From Octopus vulgaris (taxonomy: Eukaryota), in NCBI GenBank assembly GCA_951406725.2, contig OX597815.1, forward strand, positions 29,016,001 through 29,080,000: 64,000 nucleotides of DNA. The letters run 5' to 3'. Every line of letters begins with the position of its first letter. The first letter of the stretch is position 1. Both the position numbers and the translations under genes were made by a program. The notes under the pieces are model-generated. The model was not told where the DNA came from. It made no database searches and saw only the letters and a list, made by a program, of their open reading frames with translations. Positions 21,088 to 54,595 of this stretch are shown piece by piece.

Positions 21088-21289
21088 GGAGAGAGAGAGA
21101 GATGGGAGAGAGAGAATTATAAGCCTTCACCATGTATTGACATCGACAATAGAAAATAATCTTATATTAAGGCATATAAGAGCCGGTAAGGGAAAAAAAG
21201 GCAATTTGTACTAATGCTTATTTTTCCGTTAAGGGGGCTTATATGCCCTAGTATAGAACTGTTTTCTATGGTGAAAATATAGTGAAGGC

Positions 21290-30348: not shown

Positions 30349-30452
30349 TGTATGTATGTATGTATGTACGTGTGCGTGTGTGTGTTAAATAAAATGAGAC
30401 AACAAAGCCAAGGCTGTGTGGAATTTTTACGACATTTATTCAGATAAATTTA

Positions 30453-30500
30453 GTCTTACAGCTGTTTCTGGGATATTAGGGATATTCCTTCATCAGAGAC
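30453..30500 (-). ncRNA. Type I minimal hammerhead ribozyme motif
   Basis: Minus strand: GUCU-CUGAUGA-A-GGAAUA-loop-UAUCCC-A-GAAA-CAGCUG-UA-AGAC. Confidence 0.75.
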
Positions 30501-30714
30501 GATATGAGAGAGTTAACTAGAGGGAAATAGTAGAGTTCAGTATAAGGAGTGATTTTGGAAAAGTATAGATGTAGGATGTATAAAGGGAAATAAAAGAATT
30601 TTTTTTTTTACTTTTGTTCTCTTATTTCCCTTTATACTTCCTACATCTATCCTTTTCCAAAATAACTCCTTATATTGAACTCTACTATTTCCCTCTAGTT
30701 AACTCTCTCATATC

Positions 30715-30762
30715 GTCTCTGATGAAGGGATACTCCTAATATCCCAGAAACAGCTGTAAGAC
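30715..30762 (+). ncRNA. Type I minimal hammerhead ribozyme motif
   Basis: Stem I GUCU/AGAC, core CUGAUGA, stem II GGGAUA/UAUCCC, GAAA, palindromic minimal stem III ACAGCUGU, GUA cleavage triplet. Confidence 0.8.
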
Positions 30763-31324
30763 TAACTCTTTCTTTATAAATTCCACACTACCTTGGCCTT
30801 GTTGTTTTATTTCATTTAACTTATGCATGCTCACATAAGACCTGCATTAGATTCCTTACTCGTATTATTATCAAACCGAGAGTCTAACTACAGTCCTTCC
30901 GTAGCCCTTACATAGCCTTGCTTGCCATCTTGGGTCTTCTGGATACCAGTACCTCTCATATATATATATATATATATAATACGTTAGTTTTTACGTCGTA
31001 CATGATGTGTGTGGAAAATGTTTGCCTGTTTATTTCTATCTCACTCAACATTATCTACACTGGAATAATTCAAATGAAATATTTCAAAAAGGAAAATGGA
31101 ATCAAACGTAATTCTAAAATTCAGCTTGTCTGAAACCATATCGTCATTCAAATATCAGGACAAGCCCTGTGTCACGGGTTTGTATGCATATTTGTGTGTG
31201 CGCGTATGTGAATGTATGCGTGTGTAATAACGTTTAAAGACATGAAGAACCTGTGCTTAATACTACTACTACAACCACTAACACCTAACATCTCTAAGAC
31301 TACTACTAATAATAATAATTGTAC

Positions 31325-44372: not shown

Positions 44373-44436
<64 letters not shown>

Positions 44437-44526
44437 TGTATATGTAGATGGATACATATACTTATACACGCACACACACACCAGTATTACATGTTTGTAT
44501 GTGTATATATATATATAAGCTATAAA

Positions 44527-44612
44527 GTAGATTTCCCGTACGCGTAGGACTCGAACCCACATCTCTCAGTTTACGCGACCGAGTGTGCTACCGATTACAC
44601 TACCGAATCTAC
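44527..44612 (-). ncRNA. tRNA-like Pol III cassette (not a canonical tRNA)
   Basis: TAGTGTAATCGGTAGCAC D-arm/A box; CTCGG/CTGAG stem with 9-nt loop; GTGGG-TTCGAGT-CCTAC T-arm/B box; outer GTAGATT/AATCTAC pairing; followed by TTT. Confidence 0.65.
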
Positions 44613-45011
44613 CTGCCTTATTTTTTTTCGTCATATTTAAGAATTATAATTAGTTTGTAGTTGTTTTTGTAAACATACTGTAATGTGCTTTTATTGAGAA
44701 TGGTTTTGTTAAGCAGTGCCGATTTTTACAATTCTGTCAATAATAATAATAATAGCATTTTATAAGCTTAAAGCTTGTAGCGATCACTGCGGAATGACTA
44801 AAGAAAGTCTAATAATGGAGCATATAAGCCCTCTACAGAAAAAAAGAGGTTTTCCCGTACGCGTTGGGCCTCGAATATTATTATTATTATTTACAGGAAT
44901 GTCAGAATCGGCACTGCTTAACAAAACCATTCGCAGTAAAAGCACATGAAAGTTTATTTACAAAAACAACTACAAATTAATTATAGCTTTTAAATTTCAC
45001 GGAAAACTGTT

Positions 45012-45098
45012 GTAGGTTCGCTAGTATAATCGGTAGCACACTTGGTCGCGTAAAAAGAGAAGTAAGGGTTCGAGTCCCACGCGTACGGAAAAATCTAC
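45012..45098 (+). ncRNA. tRNA-like Pol III cassette, inverted sister copy
   Basis: TAGTATAATCGGTAGCAC...GGGTTCGAGTCCCAC...AATCTAC followed by a T run. Confidence 0.6.
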
Positions 45099-45203
45099 TT
45101 TTATTTTTTGTTGAGCGGGATTTATATGCTTCATTATTAAACTATTTTCTTTAGTTATTGCGCGGTAATCGCTTTAAGCTTATAAAATACTATTATCATT
45201 ATT

Positions 45204-45446
45204 TTTTTTCGCCCTTTTAAAGCCTAGCCAGGCTCAAGGGCTCGGTTTCCCGGTTTCTATGGCGTATGTGTTCCCCAGCTAGACGGGACGCCAGTCCATC
45301 GCAGCGTTACTCATTTTTGCCAGCTGAGTGGACTGGAACAACGTGAAAGAAGTGTTTTGCTCAAGAACACAGCGCGTCGCCCGGTCCAGGAATCGAAACC
45401 ACAATCTTATAATCATGGTGCTGACAACCTAACCACTAAGCCACGC
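45204..45446 (-). mobile_element. SINE family C copy
   Basis: Reverse complement of 9773-10010; inserted at the (ATT)n junction of the tandem unit. Confidence 0.87.
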
Positions 45447-46384
45447 AGAATTGTAAAAATCGGCACTGCTTAACAAAACCATTCGCATATATATATATAT
45501 ATAGTCTTAAAAGTGACAAGTTTTAAAAGCACAAAGTCCGTCCATTTAGAATAACTAACTCAAAATTAGAAATCTAAGTGCCAAAAGTTTAGTCCGACGA
45601 AACATCTTTCGTTTCATCGGAATGCCGCGTTTTTATTATCTTGTCTTTGTTATTGTTATTTAATTTTTTTTTGCTTCTATTTTCCAAGGTAAAATGTCGC
45701 CATCTTTCATCAATGCTCAATCGTTCTCTCCATGGAAAGTTTTACACCGGAAGTTGAATGGTGTGTTACCTGCACTTTGTTTTCTTCACCTTTTGTATTT
45801 TCACGGAACTAAGGCAGGTAAGGTTTTACATTTCATTTTCATTTTCATTTTCAATACTAATGTTTACATTCTTGCAATAGTTTCATCTCTTACGTTACAT
45901 TGCAGGATCCCCACTTCTAACAGTGGTATAGTGTCACAATTTTTTTTCTTTTTTTTTTTTTTGGCAGTGAACAATTTATTATGTCGAGCATAGACAAAGA
46001 AAACACAACCTGTACTTGGCAGAAGTTTTCAATCAGAAATAACGAAACTGTCAACTCTAAAAACTCCACGATCCGCTTTTTGTATAGTGTGTGTGTGTAA
46101 TGTGATCTGCCGATTTCTCTGTCATAGTATTTATAGTTTTACTATGTTATTTATAGTACTAATGAGTTATCTATCGATTTATTTAGCTTCTTCAAATCGC
46201 CGTTCTCTTCTCTTTAATTGACCGTCTATTATCCATTTACCCAGCCATCTATTTTAGTAATTTTGTGTGCGTCCGTGCATGTGTGTAAGTAAACGATGCG
46301 GTGTGCGTATGTGAATATGTGTATGTATGAATGTATACTTACTTATCTGCACTTAGTCCCTGTTTATATATCACTTTCTCACTC

Positions 46385-49071: not shown

Positions 49072-49276
49072 GCCCTTCAAGGTTGAAACAAGTATGATAA
49101 AGAATAAATATTATTATATTACAAAGAAAATACATATCACAGCATACAGAAGACATTAAGAGTTTCCATAATAAATATGAGAGTCCTAGGAGCATCTAAA
49201 CACACCAGACACATCCATATCACATTCACCGCTTCTTTTTCTTTACTCACATGATTGCCATACAACCAGATACACT

Positions 49277-49813
<537 letters not shown>

Positions 49814-49901
49814 TAACTTAGAATAACTTAGAAAGGTTTTTGGCCAGTATTGGCCCAGGCCATGTCTAACTTAATAGCACCACCTGGCGAAGTCTTTCAG
49901 T

Positions 49902-52900
49902 TCAGGATTTGGGCACCAAGGCCCATTCGAGCAGAGAGTTATTGTTTGCGGAGACATATCCGGGTGTGGATGGTTTGTCCGGTACTGTTTGAAGGAATTT
50001 GTCCAAAGACTTCTTGAATTTTGTGTGGTCAGTTTCTTTTTTGACGTGTCCTGGTGTAATGTTGAAGAGAGCGGGTCCAATTGAGGTGAAATAGTTGTGC
50101 CGTATTGTCGTTATGTGATGCGATTTAGATTTTTGTTGTGGACGGATGGCACGTGGTCCAAGCCTTGGATGCATTTTGAAGGTGATGCCAACATCATTCG
50201 GACAGTGCTGATGGAATATTTTCCACATCATACAGATAATGTAGCGTTCACGGCGTCGTTGGAGTGAATACAATTTCAGCTTCTCTAGTCTACCCCAGTA
50301 GTCAAGGTCTGACATGCCATCTATCTTTTTTGTGATTGACCTTTGGGGAGCTTCAATTCTCATAATATTTTGTTTTGTGTAGGGAGACCACAGTGGACAG
50401 CAGTATTCAAGGTGGGGTCGGGCAAAAGTGGAGAAGAGAAGGATAATAGCGTGGGAATCTCTCGACTGGAAGGTTCTGAGAATCCAGGAACACATTCTGC
50501 GGGCCATGTCAACTTTGCTGCTTATATGTGTAGCCCAGCTTATGTTGTTGTCCACTGTTACTCCCAGGTCTCTGATGTTGTTGGATGCCATGAGAATTTC
50601 TCCAGAAGGAAGAGAGTATGGGAGTTTCAGAGCGTCCTCCCTTCCAAAGTGGATCAGTTCGAATTTGTCTTCATTTAGCAACATGTTATTCTTTTCCGCC
50701 CATTGGACAACAGCTAGTAGGTCTGACTGAAGGTTTATTCGGTCATCCACGCCATTGATGACCTTCTGGAGCTTGGAATCATCAGCGAAGGTTCTGATGT
50801 TGCTGTGTTTGATGGTGTCAGTAATATCATTTATGTAGATGATGAAGAGAAGTGGGCCCAACACAGTGCCTTGTGGGACACCACTGCTGACTTTGGCTGG
50901 GCTGGATTTGACTCCTTCGACTACAACATGTTGGGTTCTGTTAGAGAGGAAGCACTTGATCCATTGCAGCAGCTTTCCAGTGACACCAATATTGGACAGC
51001 TTTCTCAGAAGGATCTTATGATCAACCCTGTCAAAGGCCTTGCTGAAATCAAGGTAGATGACATCAGTGTTGGAACCCTCTCCCAAGGCTCTCAAAATGT
51101 CATCAAAATGATGCAGTAGCTGCGTCAGGCAATCTCTCCCATTACGGAATCCATGCTGGTTGGGGTTCAGCATATTATGACTCTCAAGGAAGTGAGTCAT
51201 ACGCGATCTCAGCACCCTCTCAAATACCTTGATGATATGAGAGGTGAGTGAGATTGGACGGTAATTCACGGCAAGCGATTTGTTTCCTTTTTTGAAAACT
51301 GGGACAACAGACTGGGATAGAAGGTCTTCTGGTATATATCCAGCATCCAATGAGTTCCGCCACAGATTGGCTAGAGGGGGTGCAAGTTGGTTTTGACACA
51401 TCTTCAAGACACAAGCAGGGAACCTATCGGGACCTACTGCTGAATTATGCTTCATTTCCTTTATTGCTGCTAAGACATCAGGAGCGCCAAATGTTATGTC
51501 CGATAAAGTGTATTGGGGAGTAACATCACTGATACAGCCCAGATCAGTCATATCAGGATTGTTGAAAACAGAGCAATATTGTTTCTGCAATATTTCTCCC
51601 ATGGTTTTGGCATTGTCTTGAAGAATACCATTTTCATCAATCAGAGGGCCAACAGTAGAACCAGTGACTCTGTGTTTTTTTGCAAATGAAAAGAACACTT
51701 TGGGATTGAGTTTGATCTTCTCAATGGCCCAGGCCTCTTCAGCTCTTCGCTGACTATTGATGATAGACATCATGTTGTTTTGGAGTTTATGTTTTTTAAT
51801 CTCTAGCGACGAGATGGCAGTCAGGTTGGTGTGTTGCTGTTGACAGTATTTCAGCATGTTGATCTTTTTGTTGATTCTTTTAATTTTCCTTATGAGAGAT
51901 TTTCTATTTCTAGGGATTCGACACTTAGATTTGTTTGCAGATCTTAATGGGGTGTGTCTTGCACATATGTTCGTGATGGTGTCTACAAGTGACTGCCAGG
52001 ACTTTTTGATGTTAGTGGGTGTGTATGTGTGCGTGAAGGACCAATCGACTTGTGCAAGATCATTATTGATCGCTTCCCAGTTTGCATTGTGGAAATCCAT
52101 AGTGTCAAATGGATGAACAGGAGGGATGACATTTGTTTTGCATTTTGGCCAGTGAAATCTCAGATCACAGAGAACCATGTCATGGTCGGAGAGTAGGGTT
52201 TTCTCCACTGCAATATTGTGGATAGTATCAGTGTGATTGCTGAAAATTAAGTCTAAGACGTTTTTGTGACATCTCGTTGGTTCGAGTACCAGTTGGGACA
52301 AGAAGAAGTCATCCATGAAGTCAAGAAGCGATTCCACTGCCTCCCTGTCAGGGGTTGAGAGAGAAGAACCTGGCGGCAGACTGTTTGTAGACCAGTCAAC
52401 CCCGGGAAGGTTGAAATCTCCCATCATTAAAATGTTGTCAGGTTGACACTGCTGAATGAAACACTTTATGCTGTTGAGGCATTCCTTGAAGCATGGTAGG
52501 GGCGTTTGGGGTGGTCTGTAGAGCCCAACTACTGTTAAGTTGTTGGTTTGACTGAATACAGCGACTGCTTCGCAGTATCCATTCGAAAATATGTTCATGG
52601 CTTCTGTTGAGAATGAATCATGGACATAAATGGCAGTCCCACCCTTTCTTCTGCCAACACGATCAGCACGAATGGTTTTGAAATTTTTAACTTTCACCTC
52701 GGCTTCCAAGTGGAGGTCACTAAGATGGGTTTCAGTGAGGACGAAGAAAGGGATGTGGTTTGGATGGGCCTCGACCCAGTCCTCCAGGAATTTTATCTTC
52801 CATTTTTGTGTATTGGTGGAAGGGCTGATGCCTTGGGCATTAAGCAGAAATGTTGAGGCGAGAGTGGATGGTTTTAATTGTTTTGGTGATTTGTTAATTT

Positions 52901-52919
52901 GATTGCTTTTTAATGGCAT
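49902..52919 (-). CDS. LINE ORF2: AP endonuclease plus reverse transcriptase (1005 aa)
   Basis: APE motifs LLNAQG, LTETHL, GLYRPP, MGDFNLP, LDLIF, SDH. RT motifs NYRPISLTS, QHGFR, YLDFSKAFDRVDH, GVPQGTVLGPLLF, FADD. CR1-type C-terminus RPHLEYCCPLWSP...LYSLQRRRERY. Confidence 0.97.
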   Translation of the reverse strand: MPLKSNQINKSPKQLKPSTLASTFLLNAQGISPSTNTQKWKIKFLEDWVEAHPNHIPFFVLTETHLSDLHLEAEVKVKNFKTIRADRVGRRKGGTAIYVHDSFSTEAMNIFSNGYCEAVAVFSQTNNLTVVGLYRPPQTPLPCFKECLNSIKCFIQQCQPDNILMMGDFNLPGVDWSTNSLPPGSSLSTPDREAVESLLDFMDDFFLSQLVLEPTRCHKNVLDLIFSNHTDTIHNIAVEKTLLSDHDMVLCDLRFHWPKCKTNVIPPVHPFDTMDFHNANWEAINNDLAQVDWSFTHTYTPTNIKKSWQSLVDTITNICARHTPLRSANKSKCRIPRNRKSLIRKIKRINKKINMLKYCQQQHTNLTAISSLEIKKHKLQNNMMSIINSQRRAEEAWAIEKIKLNPKVFFSFAKKHRVTGSTVGPLIDENGILQDNAKTMGEILQKQYCSVFNNPDMTDLGCISDVTPQYTLSDITFGAPDVLAAIKEMKHNSAVGPDRFPACVLKMCQNQLAPPLANLWRNSLDAGYIPEDLLSQSVVPVFKKGNKSLAVNYRPISLTSHIIKVFERVLRSRMTHFLESHNMLNPNQHGFRNGRDCLTQLLHHFDDILRALGEGSNTDVIYLDFSKAFDRVDHKILLRKLSNIGVTGKLLQWIKCFLSNRTQHVVVEGVKSSPAKVSSGVPQGTVLGPLLFIIYINDITDTIKHSNIRTFADDSKLQKVINGVDDRINLQSDLLAVVQWAEKNNMLLNEDKFELIHFGREDALKLPYSLPSGEILMASNNIRDLGVTVDNNISWATHISSKVDMARRMCSWILRTFQSRDSHAIILLFSTFARPHLEYCCPLWSPYTKQNIMRIEAPQRSITKKIDGMSDLDYWGRLEKLKLYSLQRRRERYIICMMWKIFHQHCPNDVGITFKMHPRLGPRAIRPQQKSKSHHITTIRHNYFTSIGPALFNITPGHVKKETDHTKFKKSLDKFLQTVPDKPSTPGYVSANNNSLLEWALVPKS

Positions 52920-54139
52920 GTGTAGTGGGGTAATAGTGGTGGATGGCGGTGGGTGATAGCTCGGATGTTTTTTTCCAGTTCTTTTGCTAGATTCATTATA
53001 GCTAAAAAAGAGGAAGAAGAGGTGGTTTCCTGTCTAGGGAACCGCAGGTGACTGTGGCCGCGGCTATTTTTATGTGAGTGGTTATCTTTAAATGTCCGAC
53101 GAGTCCCCGGGAGATGGGTAAAGGGGCAATCCCTGTGCAAACACAATCTGTCTCGCTGGGAATAGCGGCAGATTTGGGGATTCCTTGTTTGAGATATTGG
53201 TGGTTGTGGTGATGTTGTATTATGGTGGTTGCTGTTGTAGTTTGTGGGGATAGAGCGTTTTGTTCCAGGTAAATGGGTGAATTTGCAGTCTCTATCAGTG
53301 CACAGTCTATGGCGAAGAGAATATCGGCAAATGATGGGGTTTCGAGTGGGTGTGTAGGTGCGTGTGTGTGTGTGAGCTGTGAAAGGTGTAGATGATAGTT
53401 TGAAGTTTTGGCGACCTTTGTGACCTGTAGGAGGTAAATTCCTTGAGATAGCATTAGTAGTAGTAGCTGTAGTAGTAGTAGTAGTAGGTAGAAGAGATGT
53501 TGACGGTGGTAATGATTGAGGAGGTCGATTCCAAGACAAAGATGTTTGTCGATATATAGTGGGAGTAGTACTAGTAGTAGTAAGCAGAGGAGATGGTGTT
53601 GACAATGATGATGATTGAGCTGCTGGGGCAGTGAAAGGAAGGGGTGGTGCTTCCTGCTGTGTGACCCTGATGACTGGGGGGTCAATCGTTTCATTTAGCA
53701 AATCGGCCATTGTAGATGAATCAAGGAGTGGTTCATCCTGTTGTTGTTGTTGAGGTTGTTGTTGTTGCCTCTGAGGTTGTTGCTGCTGAAGTTGTTGTTG
53801 TTGCTGTAACTGTTGTTGTTGTTGTTGTTGTTGCCGCTGAGTTTGTTGTTGTTGAGGTTGTTGTTGTTGTTGTTGCGCCGGTGATGCGTTCGAAGAGAAA
53901 ACACATCTCAGTTTATCGAAGTGTTTATTTATTAATTTAAAAGCAACTTCGATTTGTTTTAATTTATTTTGGATCTGCTGTTCAGATCGAGTTTGCAAAT
54001 GGTGAACTGTTCGTTTAGCAATTAGGTTCAGACACGAAGCACCTATGCTCTCTGTTTCGGTAAGGCCATGCCATGTGTTGATAAGAACGTCGACTTCATT
54101 ATCAGACCAGTTTTTGTTGGATTTTTGGTGGCTAGCCAT
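52910..54139 (-). CDS. LINE ORF1 (409 aa): Myb/SANT-like N-terminus, polyQ, two CCCH zinc fingers
   Basis: WSDNEVDVLINTW...RSEQQIQNKLKQI resembles trihelix/Myb-SANT-like domains; CAA-rich polyQ; CRYSLRHRLCTDRDCKFTH and CRYSQRDRLCLHRDCPFTH are C-x8-C-x4-C-x3-H; overlaps ORF2 by 10 nt. Confidence 0.88.
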   Translation of the reverse strand: MASHQKSNKNWSDNEVDVLINTWHGLTETESIGASCLNLIAKRTVHHLQTRSEQQIQNKLKQIEVAFKLINKHFDKLRCVFSSNASPAQQQQQQPQQQQTQRQQQQQQQQLQQQQQLQQQQPQRQQQQPQQQQQDEPLLDSSTMADLLNETIDPPVIRVTQQEAPPLPFTAPAAQSSSLSTPSPLLTTTSTTPTIYRQTSLSWNRPPQSLPPSTSLLPTTTTTTATTTNAISRNLPPTGHKGRQNFKLSSTPFTAHTHTRTYTPTRNPIICRYSLRHRLCTDRDCKFTHLPGTKRSIPTNYNSNHHNTTSPQPPISQTRNPQICRYSQRDRLCLHRDCPFTHLPGTRRTFKDNHSHKNSRGHSHLRFPRQETTSSSSFLAIMNLAKELEKNIRAITHRHPPLLPHYTCH

Positions 54140-54595
54140 TCTGGTTGATATGTTTTATTAAATTTTATTTTGTTCGTTCGTTTTGTTGATTACTTTTAAT
54201 TATTATTATTATTTTTTTTTTTTTTTTAAGGAGAAGTATGTAGAATTGATTGTACAGAATGTTTGTTGTAATACTGAGAAGTTTGTATTTGAATTATGAG
54301 CTTGTAGTTATTTTATCTTTTCTTTTCTTTTTTTTTTTTTCCCTCTTTTTCTAATTTTTAATGTGTGGGTGATCCTTTAGTTATCAGAAGGTGTTTGAAA
54401 ATATTTGGTCGTTTGAAAATTATGAAAATAGTTTGTGGTTAAGGAAAAGTCTACTCACGAGTTGGGAAAAAGCGTGGTTTCAAATATACAGGAATATATG
54501 TGATGGTCAATTACGACGAATGTAGCTGTGAAGCTTGCTGCTGACCGGCGCAGAGAGGAGTAAAAACACGTCTTATCGTCTCAGCTTACAATGAC

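Follow-up and report, generated by a model that had tools for sequence, protein, structure and literature searches.

The 64,000-nucleotide (nt) window of the Octopus vulgaris genome analysed here (contig OX597815.1, positions 29,016,001 to 29,080,000; coordinates below count from the first letter of this stretch) contains at 44524–45487 two diverging, phase-shifted runs, each slightly longer than one unit, of a non-coding repeat of about 315 base pairs (bp) that carries a transfer RNA (tRNA)-like module. We classify the repeat as a hammerhead-less, tRNA-like-bearing, non-autonomous retroelement of the Penelope-like element (PLE) type. It is probable that the two runs are head-to-head, partial-tandem copies of a ~315-bp family inserted by a PLE reverse transcriptase (RT)–endonuclease, and that the module is a small RNA polymerase III gene and not a proven stand-in for a hammerhead ribozyme. 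At the level of the family, PLE-type integration is well supported because 5′ truncation, tandem runs, inverted copies, a one-sided tail and an AT-rich target all match the published anatomy of PLE insertions.

We numbered the unit u1–u315 on the right arm (44876–45190), in the sense of the tRNA-like part. At 44875/44876 the two arms abut head to head and out of phase, with u194 on one side and u1 on the other. Mapping with the family profile resolved the left arm (44524–44875, minus strand, 352 nt) into u194–313 followed by u1–229. Its upstream copy (u194–313; 44757–44875, minus strand, repeat and profile mapping) is 5′-truncated at the inversion junction, where it begins inside the T-loop of an incomplete tRNA-like cassette, and its downstream copy (u1 to about u229; 44524–44756, minus strand, BLAST and hidden Markov model (HMM) mapping) ends just past the closing stem of the tRNA-like part and TTT; a direct repeat at 44524–44548 and 44843–44867 sets the spacing at 319 nt. 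By BLAST and profile mapping, the right arm (44876–45206, plus strand) comprises the full u1–315 and runs ~16 nt into the following unit. There the arm is interrupted by a younger tRNA-derived short interspersed nuclear element (SINE; 45202–45445, minus strand, with the body at 45210–45445 and the A-tail at 45202–45209, delimited from its genome copies), and resumes as a ~40-nt 'tail' of u19–60 (45446–45487, plus strand, repeat and profile mapping) whose 42 nt are 90% identical to 44894–44935. Direct reading of the sequence places (TA)7 beside the outer, 3′ end of the left arm (44504–44517), where it is likely part of an AT-rich target, and (TA)8 beside the outer, 3′ end of the right arm (45488–45503). 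The arms are inverted copies of each other over segments of 131, 81, 42 and 36 nt (86%, 85%, 98% and 92% complementary, respectively), and no reading frame of at least 120 amino acids (aa) overlaps 44524–45487. The diverging phase-shifted runs, the (TA)n on both sides and the SINE interruption are all present as a first-pass annotation of this DNA had described them. A 25-nt direct repeat at the outer borders (44504–44528 and 45490–45514) is 84% identical, with 7 of 11 bases agreeing outside the (TA)7 part, and could be a target-site duplication.

The repeat belongs to a dispersed family. Searching the 2.8-Gb assembly (227 contigs) with two unit queries returned 1277 and 1696 first-look candidates (40 scored each), which suggests a family of about 10^3 loci, and copies are spread as hundreds of separate loci over all large contigs. 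We sampled loci from the best whole-unit matches, from all 45 exact genomic matches to an 18-mer (u37–54) and from the best matches to the tRNA-like part, leaving 84 loci after duplicate removal; 83 distinct loci gave 137 runs, which were mapped against a pair of profile HMMs derived from 42 units, the second being rotated so as to span unit junctions. Mean pairwise identity among the 42 full units is 80%, and we take the family to be old because the copy nearest the majority finds its best match elsewhere at only 88% identity. One pair of sampled loci, L044 and L045 (C10:63602121 and C10:63613037), lies 11 kb apart with identical flanks and identical mapped coordinates; this is a segmental duplication, and L045 was dropped by its shared 40-mers so that the pair counts once.

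Insertion ends across the family are strongly polar. Among runs of at least 40 nt, 113 of 135 have their 3′ end in u296–35 (class A) or u45–90 (class B), zones that jointly account for 32% of the unit's length (p = 4e-35; 48/58, 45/53 and 20/24 in the three samples). Class A peaks at u21–25, just after TTTACAGAAT, and class B forms a plateau at u56–75 about 40 nt away, the class to which the right-arm tail in the window belongs. Between the two zones lies an AC-rich stretch (…CTTAACAAAACCATTCGCA…), and we infer that the zones mark RT start sites. By contrast, 5′ ends are spread over the unit and occur in all but one of 21 bins, with clusters at u123–135 (13/135 runs, p = 0.004) and u193–211 (22/135 runs, p = 2e-5). 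The freely variable permutation points anticipated for this repeat are therefore not what the copies display: variation is confined to the 5′ ends, the 3′ ends being fixed. The shortest run measures 42 nt and the longest 744 nt, or 2.4 units; 28 of 137 exceed 390 nt, the length of a unit plus tail, and 41 of 137 cross the unit junction with at least 30 nt before it and at least 100 nt after it, as do both arms in the window.

The head-to-head layout is equally characteristic of the family. Adjacent inverted pairs diverge, with 3′ ends outward, in 38 cases and converge in 1 (p = 1.5e-10), and diverging pairs occur in 38 of the 83 loci (46%; 17/36, 16/32 and 5/15 by sample). The locus in the window is thus no one-off rearrangement, and the description of a non-autonomous, non-coding element with a tandem-plus-inverted layout extends to the family as a whole. 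Chance pairing is excluded, because some 10^3 loci in 2.8 Gb would almost never adjoin and yet so many diverge in the same way. In 20 of the 23 pairs with both outer ends canonical, one end is class A and the other class B (50% expected, p = 2.4e-4), so that the ~40-nt extension lies on one arm only. Inner junctions of the pairs cluster at u193–211, a segment made up of the self-complementary ACGCGTACG and the T-arm hairpin, and the arms often overlap there by up to a few tens of bases. We also considered whether this cluster might stem from RT stopping at a modified base in the T-loop; the idea is unsupported, as the window's own arm reads through that base, and self-complementarity of ACGCGTACG is the simpler cause. 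At their 3′ side, copies adjoin (TA)n or unique DNA: a (TA) tract of at least four repeats lies within 24 nt of 53 of 137 3′ ends (39%), compared with 165 of 2300 background 24-mers from the same loci (7%), and such tracts occur at 8 of 61 5′ flanks of single runs.

These features correspond closely to PLE insertions. As described in a report on Naiads (PMC8557442), PLE insertions are strongly 5′-truncated partial tandems with pseudo-long terminal repeats (pseudo-LTRs), often accompanied by an adjacent inverted, 5′-truncated copy on their 5′ side and by a tail of 30–40 bp at one end, and Naiads are themselves without hammerheads and prefer (TA)n targets. In work with a purified PLE protein, both strands of the DNA were cleaved and extended, and AT-rich DNA was preferred (PMC11167929). 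The octopus family shares with Naiads and with the Poseidon element PAc the 5′ truncation, the partial tandems and the adjacent inverted 5′-truncated copy, together with the one-sided tail of 30–40 nt that two RT start sites in an AC-rich stretch delimit, and AT-rich or (TA)n targets. Every structural hallmark tested matches the Penelope-type integration that had been suggested from the window alone. Unlike PLEs, the 315-bp unit holds no RT or GIY-YIG frame and has no sequence in common with the 13 PLE stretches examined. The host genome is rich in PLEs, with 6136 first-look GIY-YIG candidates and many intact 781-aa frames bearing a C-terminal GIY-YIG domain.

In the mechanism that we propose, a tandem master copy would give rise to an RNA longer than one unit, and a PLE protein would cut both strands of an AT-rich or (TA)n target. 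Reverse transcription would begin on each strand from one of two internal RNA sites, at ~u22 or ~u60–72 in the AC-rich stretch, each complementary DNA (cDNA) would stop at a variable point, and the cDNA ends would be joined, often at the self-complementary ACGCGTACG and T-arm region, to leave diverging, 5′-truncated and phase-shifted arms. The junction hot spot at u193–211 might then arise because cDNAs of the same polarity can anneal only at a self-complementary sequence. At the locus described here, the cDNA of the right arm would have started at u60, the end observed beside (TA)8, and been copied back through a full unit to u1, and that of the left arm would have been copied back through 1.1 units to stop in the T-loop of the upstream module, observed at u194. 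The two ends would have been joined at 44875/44876, and the younger SINE would later have inserted into the right arm. As multimeric linear RNA with internal RT starts explains the data, the circular templates invoked in the first-pass annotation are not needed. The module itself, with its B box GGTTCGAGTCC, partial A box, cloverleaf in an extended stem and T-run, would be transcribed alone by RNA polymerase III, and this transcription would occasionally yield templates that start at the module head.

The module spans u135–225 in a unit whose copies mostly include u1–134. In the left arm, the cassette with its outer 7-bp stem (GTAGATT/AATCTAC, 44606–44612 and 44527–44533) occupies 44527–44612 on the minus strand and has D, anticodon (9-nt loop) and T arms; the Rfam tRNA model matches 44544–44602 (minus strand) at 29.6 bits, compared with a gathering score of 29, over model positions 8–63 only. 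In the right arm, reading of the sequence and alignment with 23 copies place the cassette and its T-run at 45011–45109 on the plus strand (outer stem 45011–45017/45092–45098, T-run 45099–45109), and Rfam does not report this cassette at E ≤ 1. ARAGORN calls no tRNA gene in the window, and the module departs from a tRNA gene as defined by a full cloverleaf, an acceptor stem and a 7-nt anticodon loop. The internal cassette with three arms, outer stem and T-run that had been noticed from the sequence is therefore present in degenerate form. The window's copy is atypical of the family around the T-run.

Across 24 aligned copies, 81% of cells in the cloverleaf and outer stem are paired, compared with at most 56% with shifted partners. 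At one position of the anticodon stem, 14 copies have a U-A pair and 5 a C-G pair; 4 of 500 shuffles reach the covariation score, and kinship alone can give such scores without structure. The module sits within a longer hairpin (CTGACAGAAAA… / …TTTTCTGTCAG), so that the T-run is also one strand of a stem, and one subfamily alters both sides of this hairpin (CGG/CCG), both changes falling at CpG sites. The fold of the whole unit RNA is not unusually stable (z = -0.83 and -0.39), and we reject a viroid-like or rod-like fold on that basis. A further candidate stem, ACTGC/GCAGT around the AC-rich tail stretch, was discarded, as its pairs are broken in a CACCGC...GCACC subfamily and covariation lends it no support.

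Judged by consensus boxes, the module contains a B box, GGTTCGAGTCC, and only a partial match to the A box. The two lines of evidence that follow suggest that it is a self-contained unit for RNA polymerase III. The 5′ ends at u123–135 amount to an approximately threefold enrichment at the module head, and several of these head-start copies span head, T-run and canonical 3′ end in 201–259 nt. At five further loci (L167–L171; C3:90261449, C23:36756418, C18:78074518, C1:111686338 and C9:95869740), the module alone, from profile positions 133–146 to 227–235, is joined to the complete head of another abundant SINE in a composite of about 490 nt. The fusions have unrelated upstream flanks, and 4 of the 5 share an identical junction; in the same search, 36 further matches start at the partner SINE's own head (35 separate copies and 1 adjacent partial). 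The fusions may be template-switch chimeras onto module RNA, or they may represent a small dimeric SINE family, and their extent from head to T-run would fit a separate RNA polymerase III transcript. The excess of 5′ ends at the head, together with the head-to-T-run copies joined to a second SINE, lends some indirect support to a promoter function, and we consider a polymerase III small-RNA gene carried within the element a more likely identity for the module than a ribozyme stand-in.

The strongest competing explanation holds that the tRNA-like hairpin replaces the hammerhead, multimeric transcripts being cut by host RNase P and RNase Z, or delimited by initiation and termination of polymerase III, to give unit-length template RNAs that may be circularised. 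The unit does lack a hammerhead: Rfam finds none at E ≤ 1 in 44400–45600, and none at the gathering score in the window or at 20 family loci. The 3′ end of the module lies ~110 nt upstream of the first inferred RT start, broadly the position of the hammerhead in a studied PLE, whose cut site precedes the RT start sites by 85–92 nt (PMC11167929). Some 24 of 135 runs approach unit length and have a 5′ end near the 3′-end zone (u295–19), and the compensatory pair change between subfamilies indicates that structure has been kept. The 5′-end enrichment at u295–19 is not significant, however (p = 0.055), and the unit RNA has no unusual fold stability. Insertion ends also miss the module borders (0/135 3′ ends at u121–150 and 2/135 5′ ends at u226–240), so that the copies give no support to a cleavage signal that sets unit-length templates. 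Moreover, the hammerhead itself is dispensable for PLE insertion in vitro (PMC11167929), and there may be no role to replace. We accordingly regard this explanation as distinctly unlikely, and a tRNA-like fold in place of a ribozyme as unproven. The broader proposition that the family is the first SINE-like parasite of PLEs, a 'retrozyme without a ribozyme' whose polymerase III module starts and/or cleaves the template through the host tRNA machinery, is somewhat less doubtful and still unlikely.

Mobilisation by long interspersed nuclear elements (LINEs) offers a more conventional origin, in which the repeat is an ordinary tRNA-derived SINE and its inverted and tandem forms stem from twin priming, template switching or later recombination. 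Twin priming is a well-known source of inverted, 5′-truncated insertions of the LINE type. The module has features of a SINE head (B box, partial A box and T-run), the 13 runs in the u123–135 cluster start at that head, and a LINE with an APE-type endonuclease lies within the window. Most copies nevertheless include 130 nt upstream of the head and none has an A-rich tail, and the 3′ ends fall at two fixed positions 40 nt from each other, with a single arm extended in 20 of 23 pairs. The prevalence of inverted pairs is a further difficulty, as both arms usually carry the element's 3′ end where twin priming predicts an internal segment. A control from the same genome behaves conventionally: 39 other copies of the SINE that interrupts the right arm (45202–45445; 4313 first-look candidates in the genome) are 93–95% identical, all start at position 1–3 and end at 231–247, and include only 3 with a same-strand partial neighbour and 1 with an opposite-strand neighbour. 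LINE mobilisation is very unlikely in our estimation.

The unit length, low G+C content, short tandem runs and microsatellite neighbours, together with the segmental duplication noted above, would suit a satellite-like tandem repeat spread at the DNA level by excised circles, microsatellite recombination or segmental duplication, the tRNA-like part being a fossil. Long arrays were not observed, however, the longest run among the 137 reaching 744 nt; the family is scattered as hundreds of separate loci across all large contigs; and the strict polarity of the copies (38:1 diverging to converging pairs, fixed 3′ and scattered 5′ ends) is unlike that of randomly opened DNA circles. We give this origin scarcely any credence. 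Least credible of all is a TA-targeting derivative of a DNA transposon (a miniature inverted-repeat transposable element or foldback element), for which the TA-rich flanks and the internal inverted repeats around the module might speak, as copy ends lack terminal inverted repeats and there is no constant 5′ terminus, truncation occurring at all positions.

Insertion by a PLE enzyme remains the reading that we favour, and several observations weigh against it. Comparison by BLAST and nhmmer with 13 stretches (12 loci with GIY-YIG and the 5′ region of an intact 781-aa PLE) of at least 6136 candidates yielded only (ATT)n matches or matches at E about 1, and the autonomous element sharing the unit that the first-pass annotation envisaged was not found among them; the partner may be unsampled or, given the age of the family, extinct. 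PLE coding fragments lie near only 1 of 84 family loci in a tblastn search with a PLE protein, a frequency consistent with chance. The lack of a hammerhead means that the family fails the definition of a retrozyme, and its age implies that target-site duplications and exact ends are blurred. (TA)n adjoins no more than the 39% of 3′ ends given above. The window's own left arm stops at u229, outside both canonical 3′-end zones, an end of a type seen 5 times among the 135 runs; the RNA may have ended at the terminator, or an internal deletion may have occurred, which we consider because the next 11–12 nt (44516–44527 region, TATAGCTTATA) resemble u294–306. These nucleotides may be u294–306 after such a deletion or may be target DNA. 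As to the module, the Rfam tRNA threshold is reached at 0 of 20 other family loci, and the T-run behind the module should stop RNA polymerase III, which leaves whole-unit templates unexplained by the module alone. Nor is the module better conserved than its surroundings (majority frequency 0.80, compared with 0.86 for the rest of the unit), a comparison that says little where copies decay neutrally. Finally, the sampled loci come from top-ranked or motif-selected lists and are not random, the sample chosen by the 18-mer contains u37–54 by construction and so inflates the class B count, and profile alignments overrun palindromic junctions by a few bases, which makes the 5′ clusters at u123–135 and u193–211 approximate.

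Among the closest known systems are animal non-LTR retrozymes. These are short tandem repeats with type I hammerheads that have been proposed to derive from PLE pseudo-LTRs (PMC7229834; bioRxiv 10.64898/2026.07.22.740005). Like them, the octopus family is a non-coding, low-G+C unit of a few hundred bp, scattered through a PLE-rich genome as monomers, dimers and short multimers, and it is probably dependent on PLE enzymes; layout and likely dependence are thus retrozyme-like. Unlike retrozymes, it has a tRNA-like module and no hammerhead, their defining feature, its whole-unit fold is not unusually stable and no homology to PLE pseudo-LTRs was found in the stretches compared.

A close conceptual parallel can be drawn, by analogy, to Cassandra and Helenus. 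Cassandra (5S), Helenus (tRNA-like) and Ajax, the TRIMp3 elements (PMC10886601), are LTR retrotransposons that are non-autonomous and hold a module of the RNA polymerase III type in their terminal repeat. Like TRIMp3 elements, the octopus family carries a small-RNA-gene module with promoter boxes and terminator inside the repeat of a non-autonomous element that is no LINE-dependent SINE. Unlike it, TRIMp3 elements have true LTRs, a primer-binding site, a polypurine tract, target duplications of 4–5 bp and dependence on LTR retrotransposons. None of our 137 runs has an LTR–internal–LTR layout, in a survey that included no specific search for primer-binding sites or polypurine tracts. The family also resembles tRNA-derived SINEs in its tRNA-related module, B box and T-arm, in the minority of copies that start at the head and in the fusion of the module before another SINE. 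It differs in that the head is internal (about 110–135 nt from the unit start) with the T-run directly behind it, in the lack of an A-rich or LINE-type tail, and in its tandem and inverted copies. Monomers that begin at the tRNA head, which would be expected of ordinary SINEs, are the exception among these runs.

To our knowledge, PLEs are the least understood class of retroelements, and we know of no non-autonomous PLE dependants recognised so far by anything other than the hammerhead motif. A family with the full PLE insertion signature and a tRNA-like module would be invisible to ribozyme-based searches and would be misfiled as an 'unclassified SINE'; the octopus family may already be among the 'unclassified SINEs' of published annotations (PMC13282606). 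In a literature survey of incomplete coverage, at the level of titles and the beginnings of abstracts, we found no description of a PLE-dependent element with a tRNA-like module. The family offers ~10^3 natural insertion products in which two RT start sites, a one-sided tail, double-strand cutting and cDNA joining can all be read, and it raises the testable question of what purpose a ribozyme or its substitute serves.

The window and the sampled loci contain further elements of related kinds. A palindrome at 30367–30837 (arms 30434–30598 and 30617–30781, 92% complementary, extending to 30367 and 30837) carries in each arm an outward-facing hammerhead-core motif (CTGATGA...GAAAC) that scores below the Rfam gathering threshold, has (GTAT)n/(GT)n on its left flank and resembles two PLE pseudo-LTR fragments placed head to head. 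Of the two hammerhead palindromes to which the layout of the tRNA-like repeat had been likened, this is the only one confirmed in the window, and no second copy of its sequence is present there. Scanning the whole window against Rfam at E ≤ 1 yielded, among the matches listed, nothing but microRNA noise from microsatellites. At 21121–21198 (minus strand) and 21220–21272 (plus strand), a much more diverged pair, also head to head and belonging to this family or a sister family, matches profile positions 225–294 and 225–275 (E about 1e-4), with (GT)n/(GA)n on the left and another repeat on the right. In L006 and L029, the (TAT)n at the unit junction (u1–15) has grown into long (ATT)n tracts; ATT is the preferred cleavage motif of a PLE endonuclease (PMC11167929). 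At L130, the family locus with PLE coding fragments nearby, inverted fragments at 2218–2882 (C3:77272457-77273121) lie ~300 nt from the family copy, with a C-terminal part on the minus strand abutting an N-terminal part on the plus strand. The intact 781-aa PLE frames (for example L072, L077 and L166, C16:20836792-20839089) have identical endonuclease scores, which points to a young PLE family; tandem ~80-bp repeats follow the frame, and the family lacks similarity to the ~315-bp unit. The LINE-type frames in the window (49902–54154, minus strand) comprise a 1043-aa frame with Exo_endo_phos and RVT_1 domains preceded by a 414-aa frame, with a long microsatellite block on the 3′ side (49137–49870).

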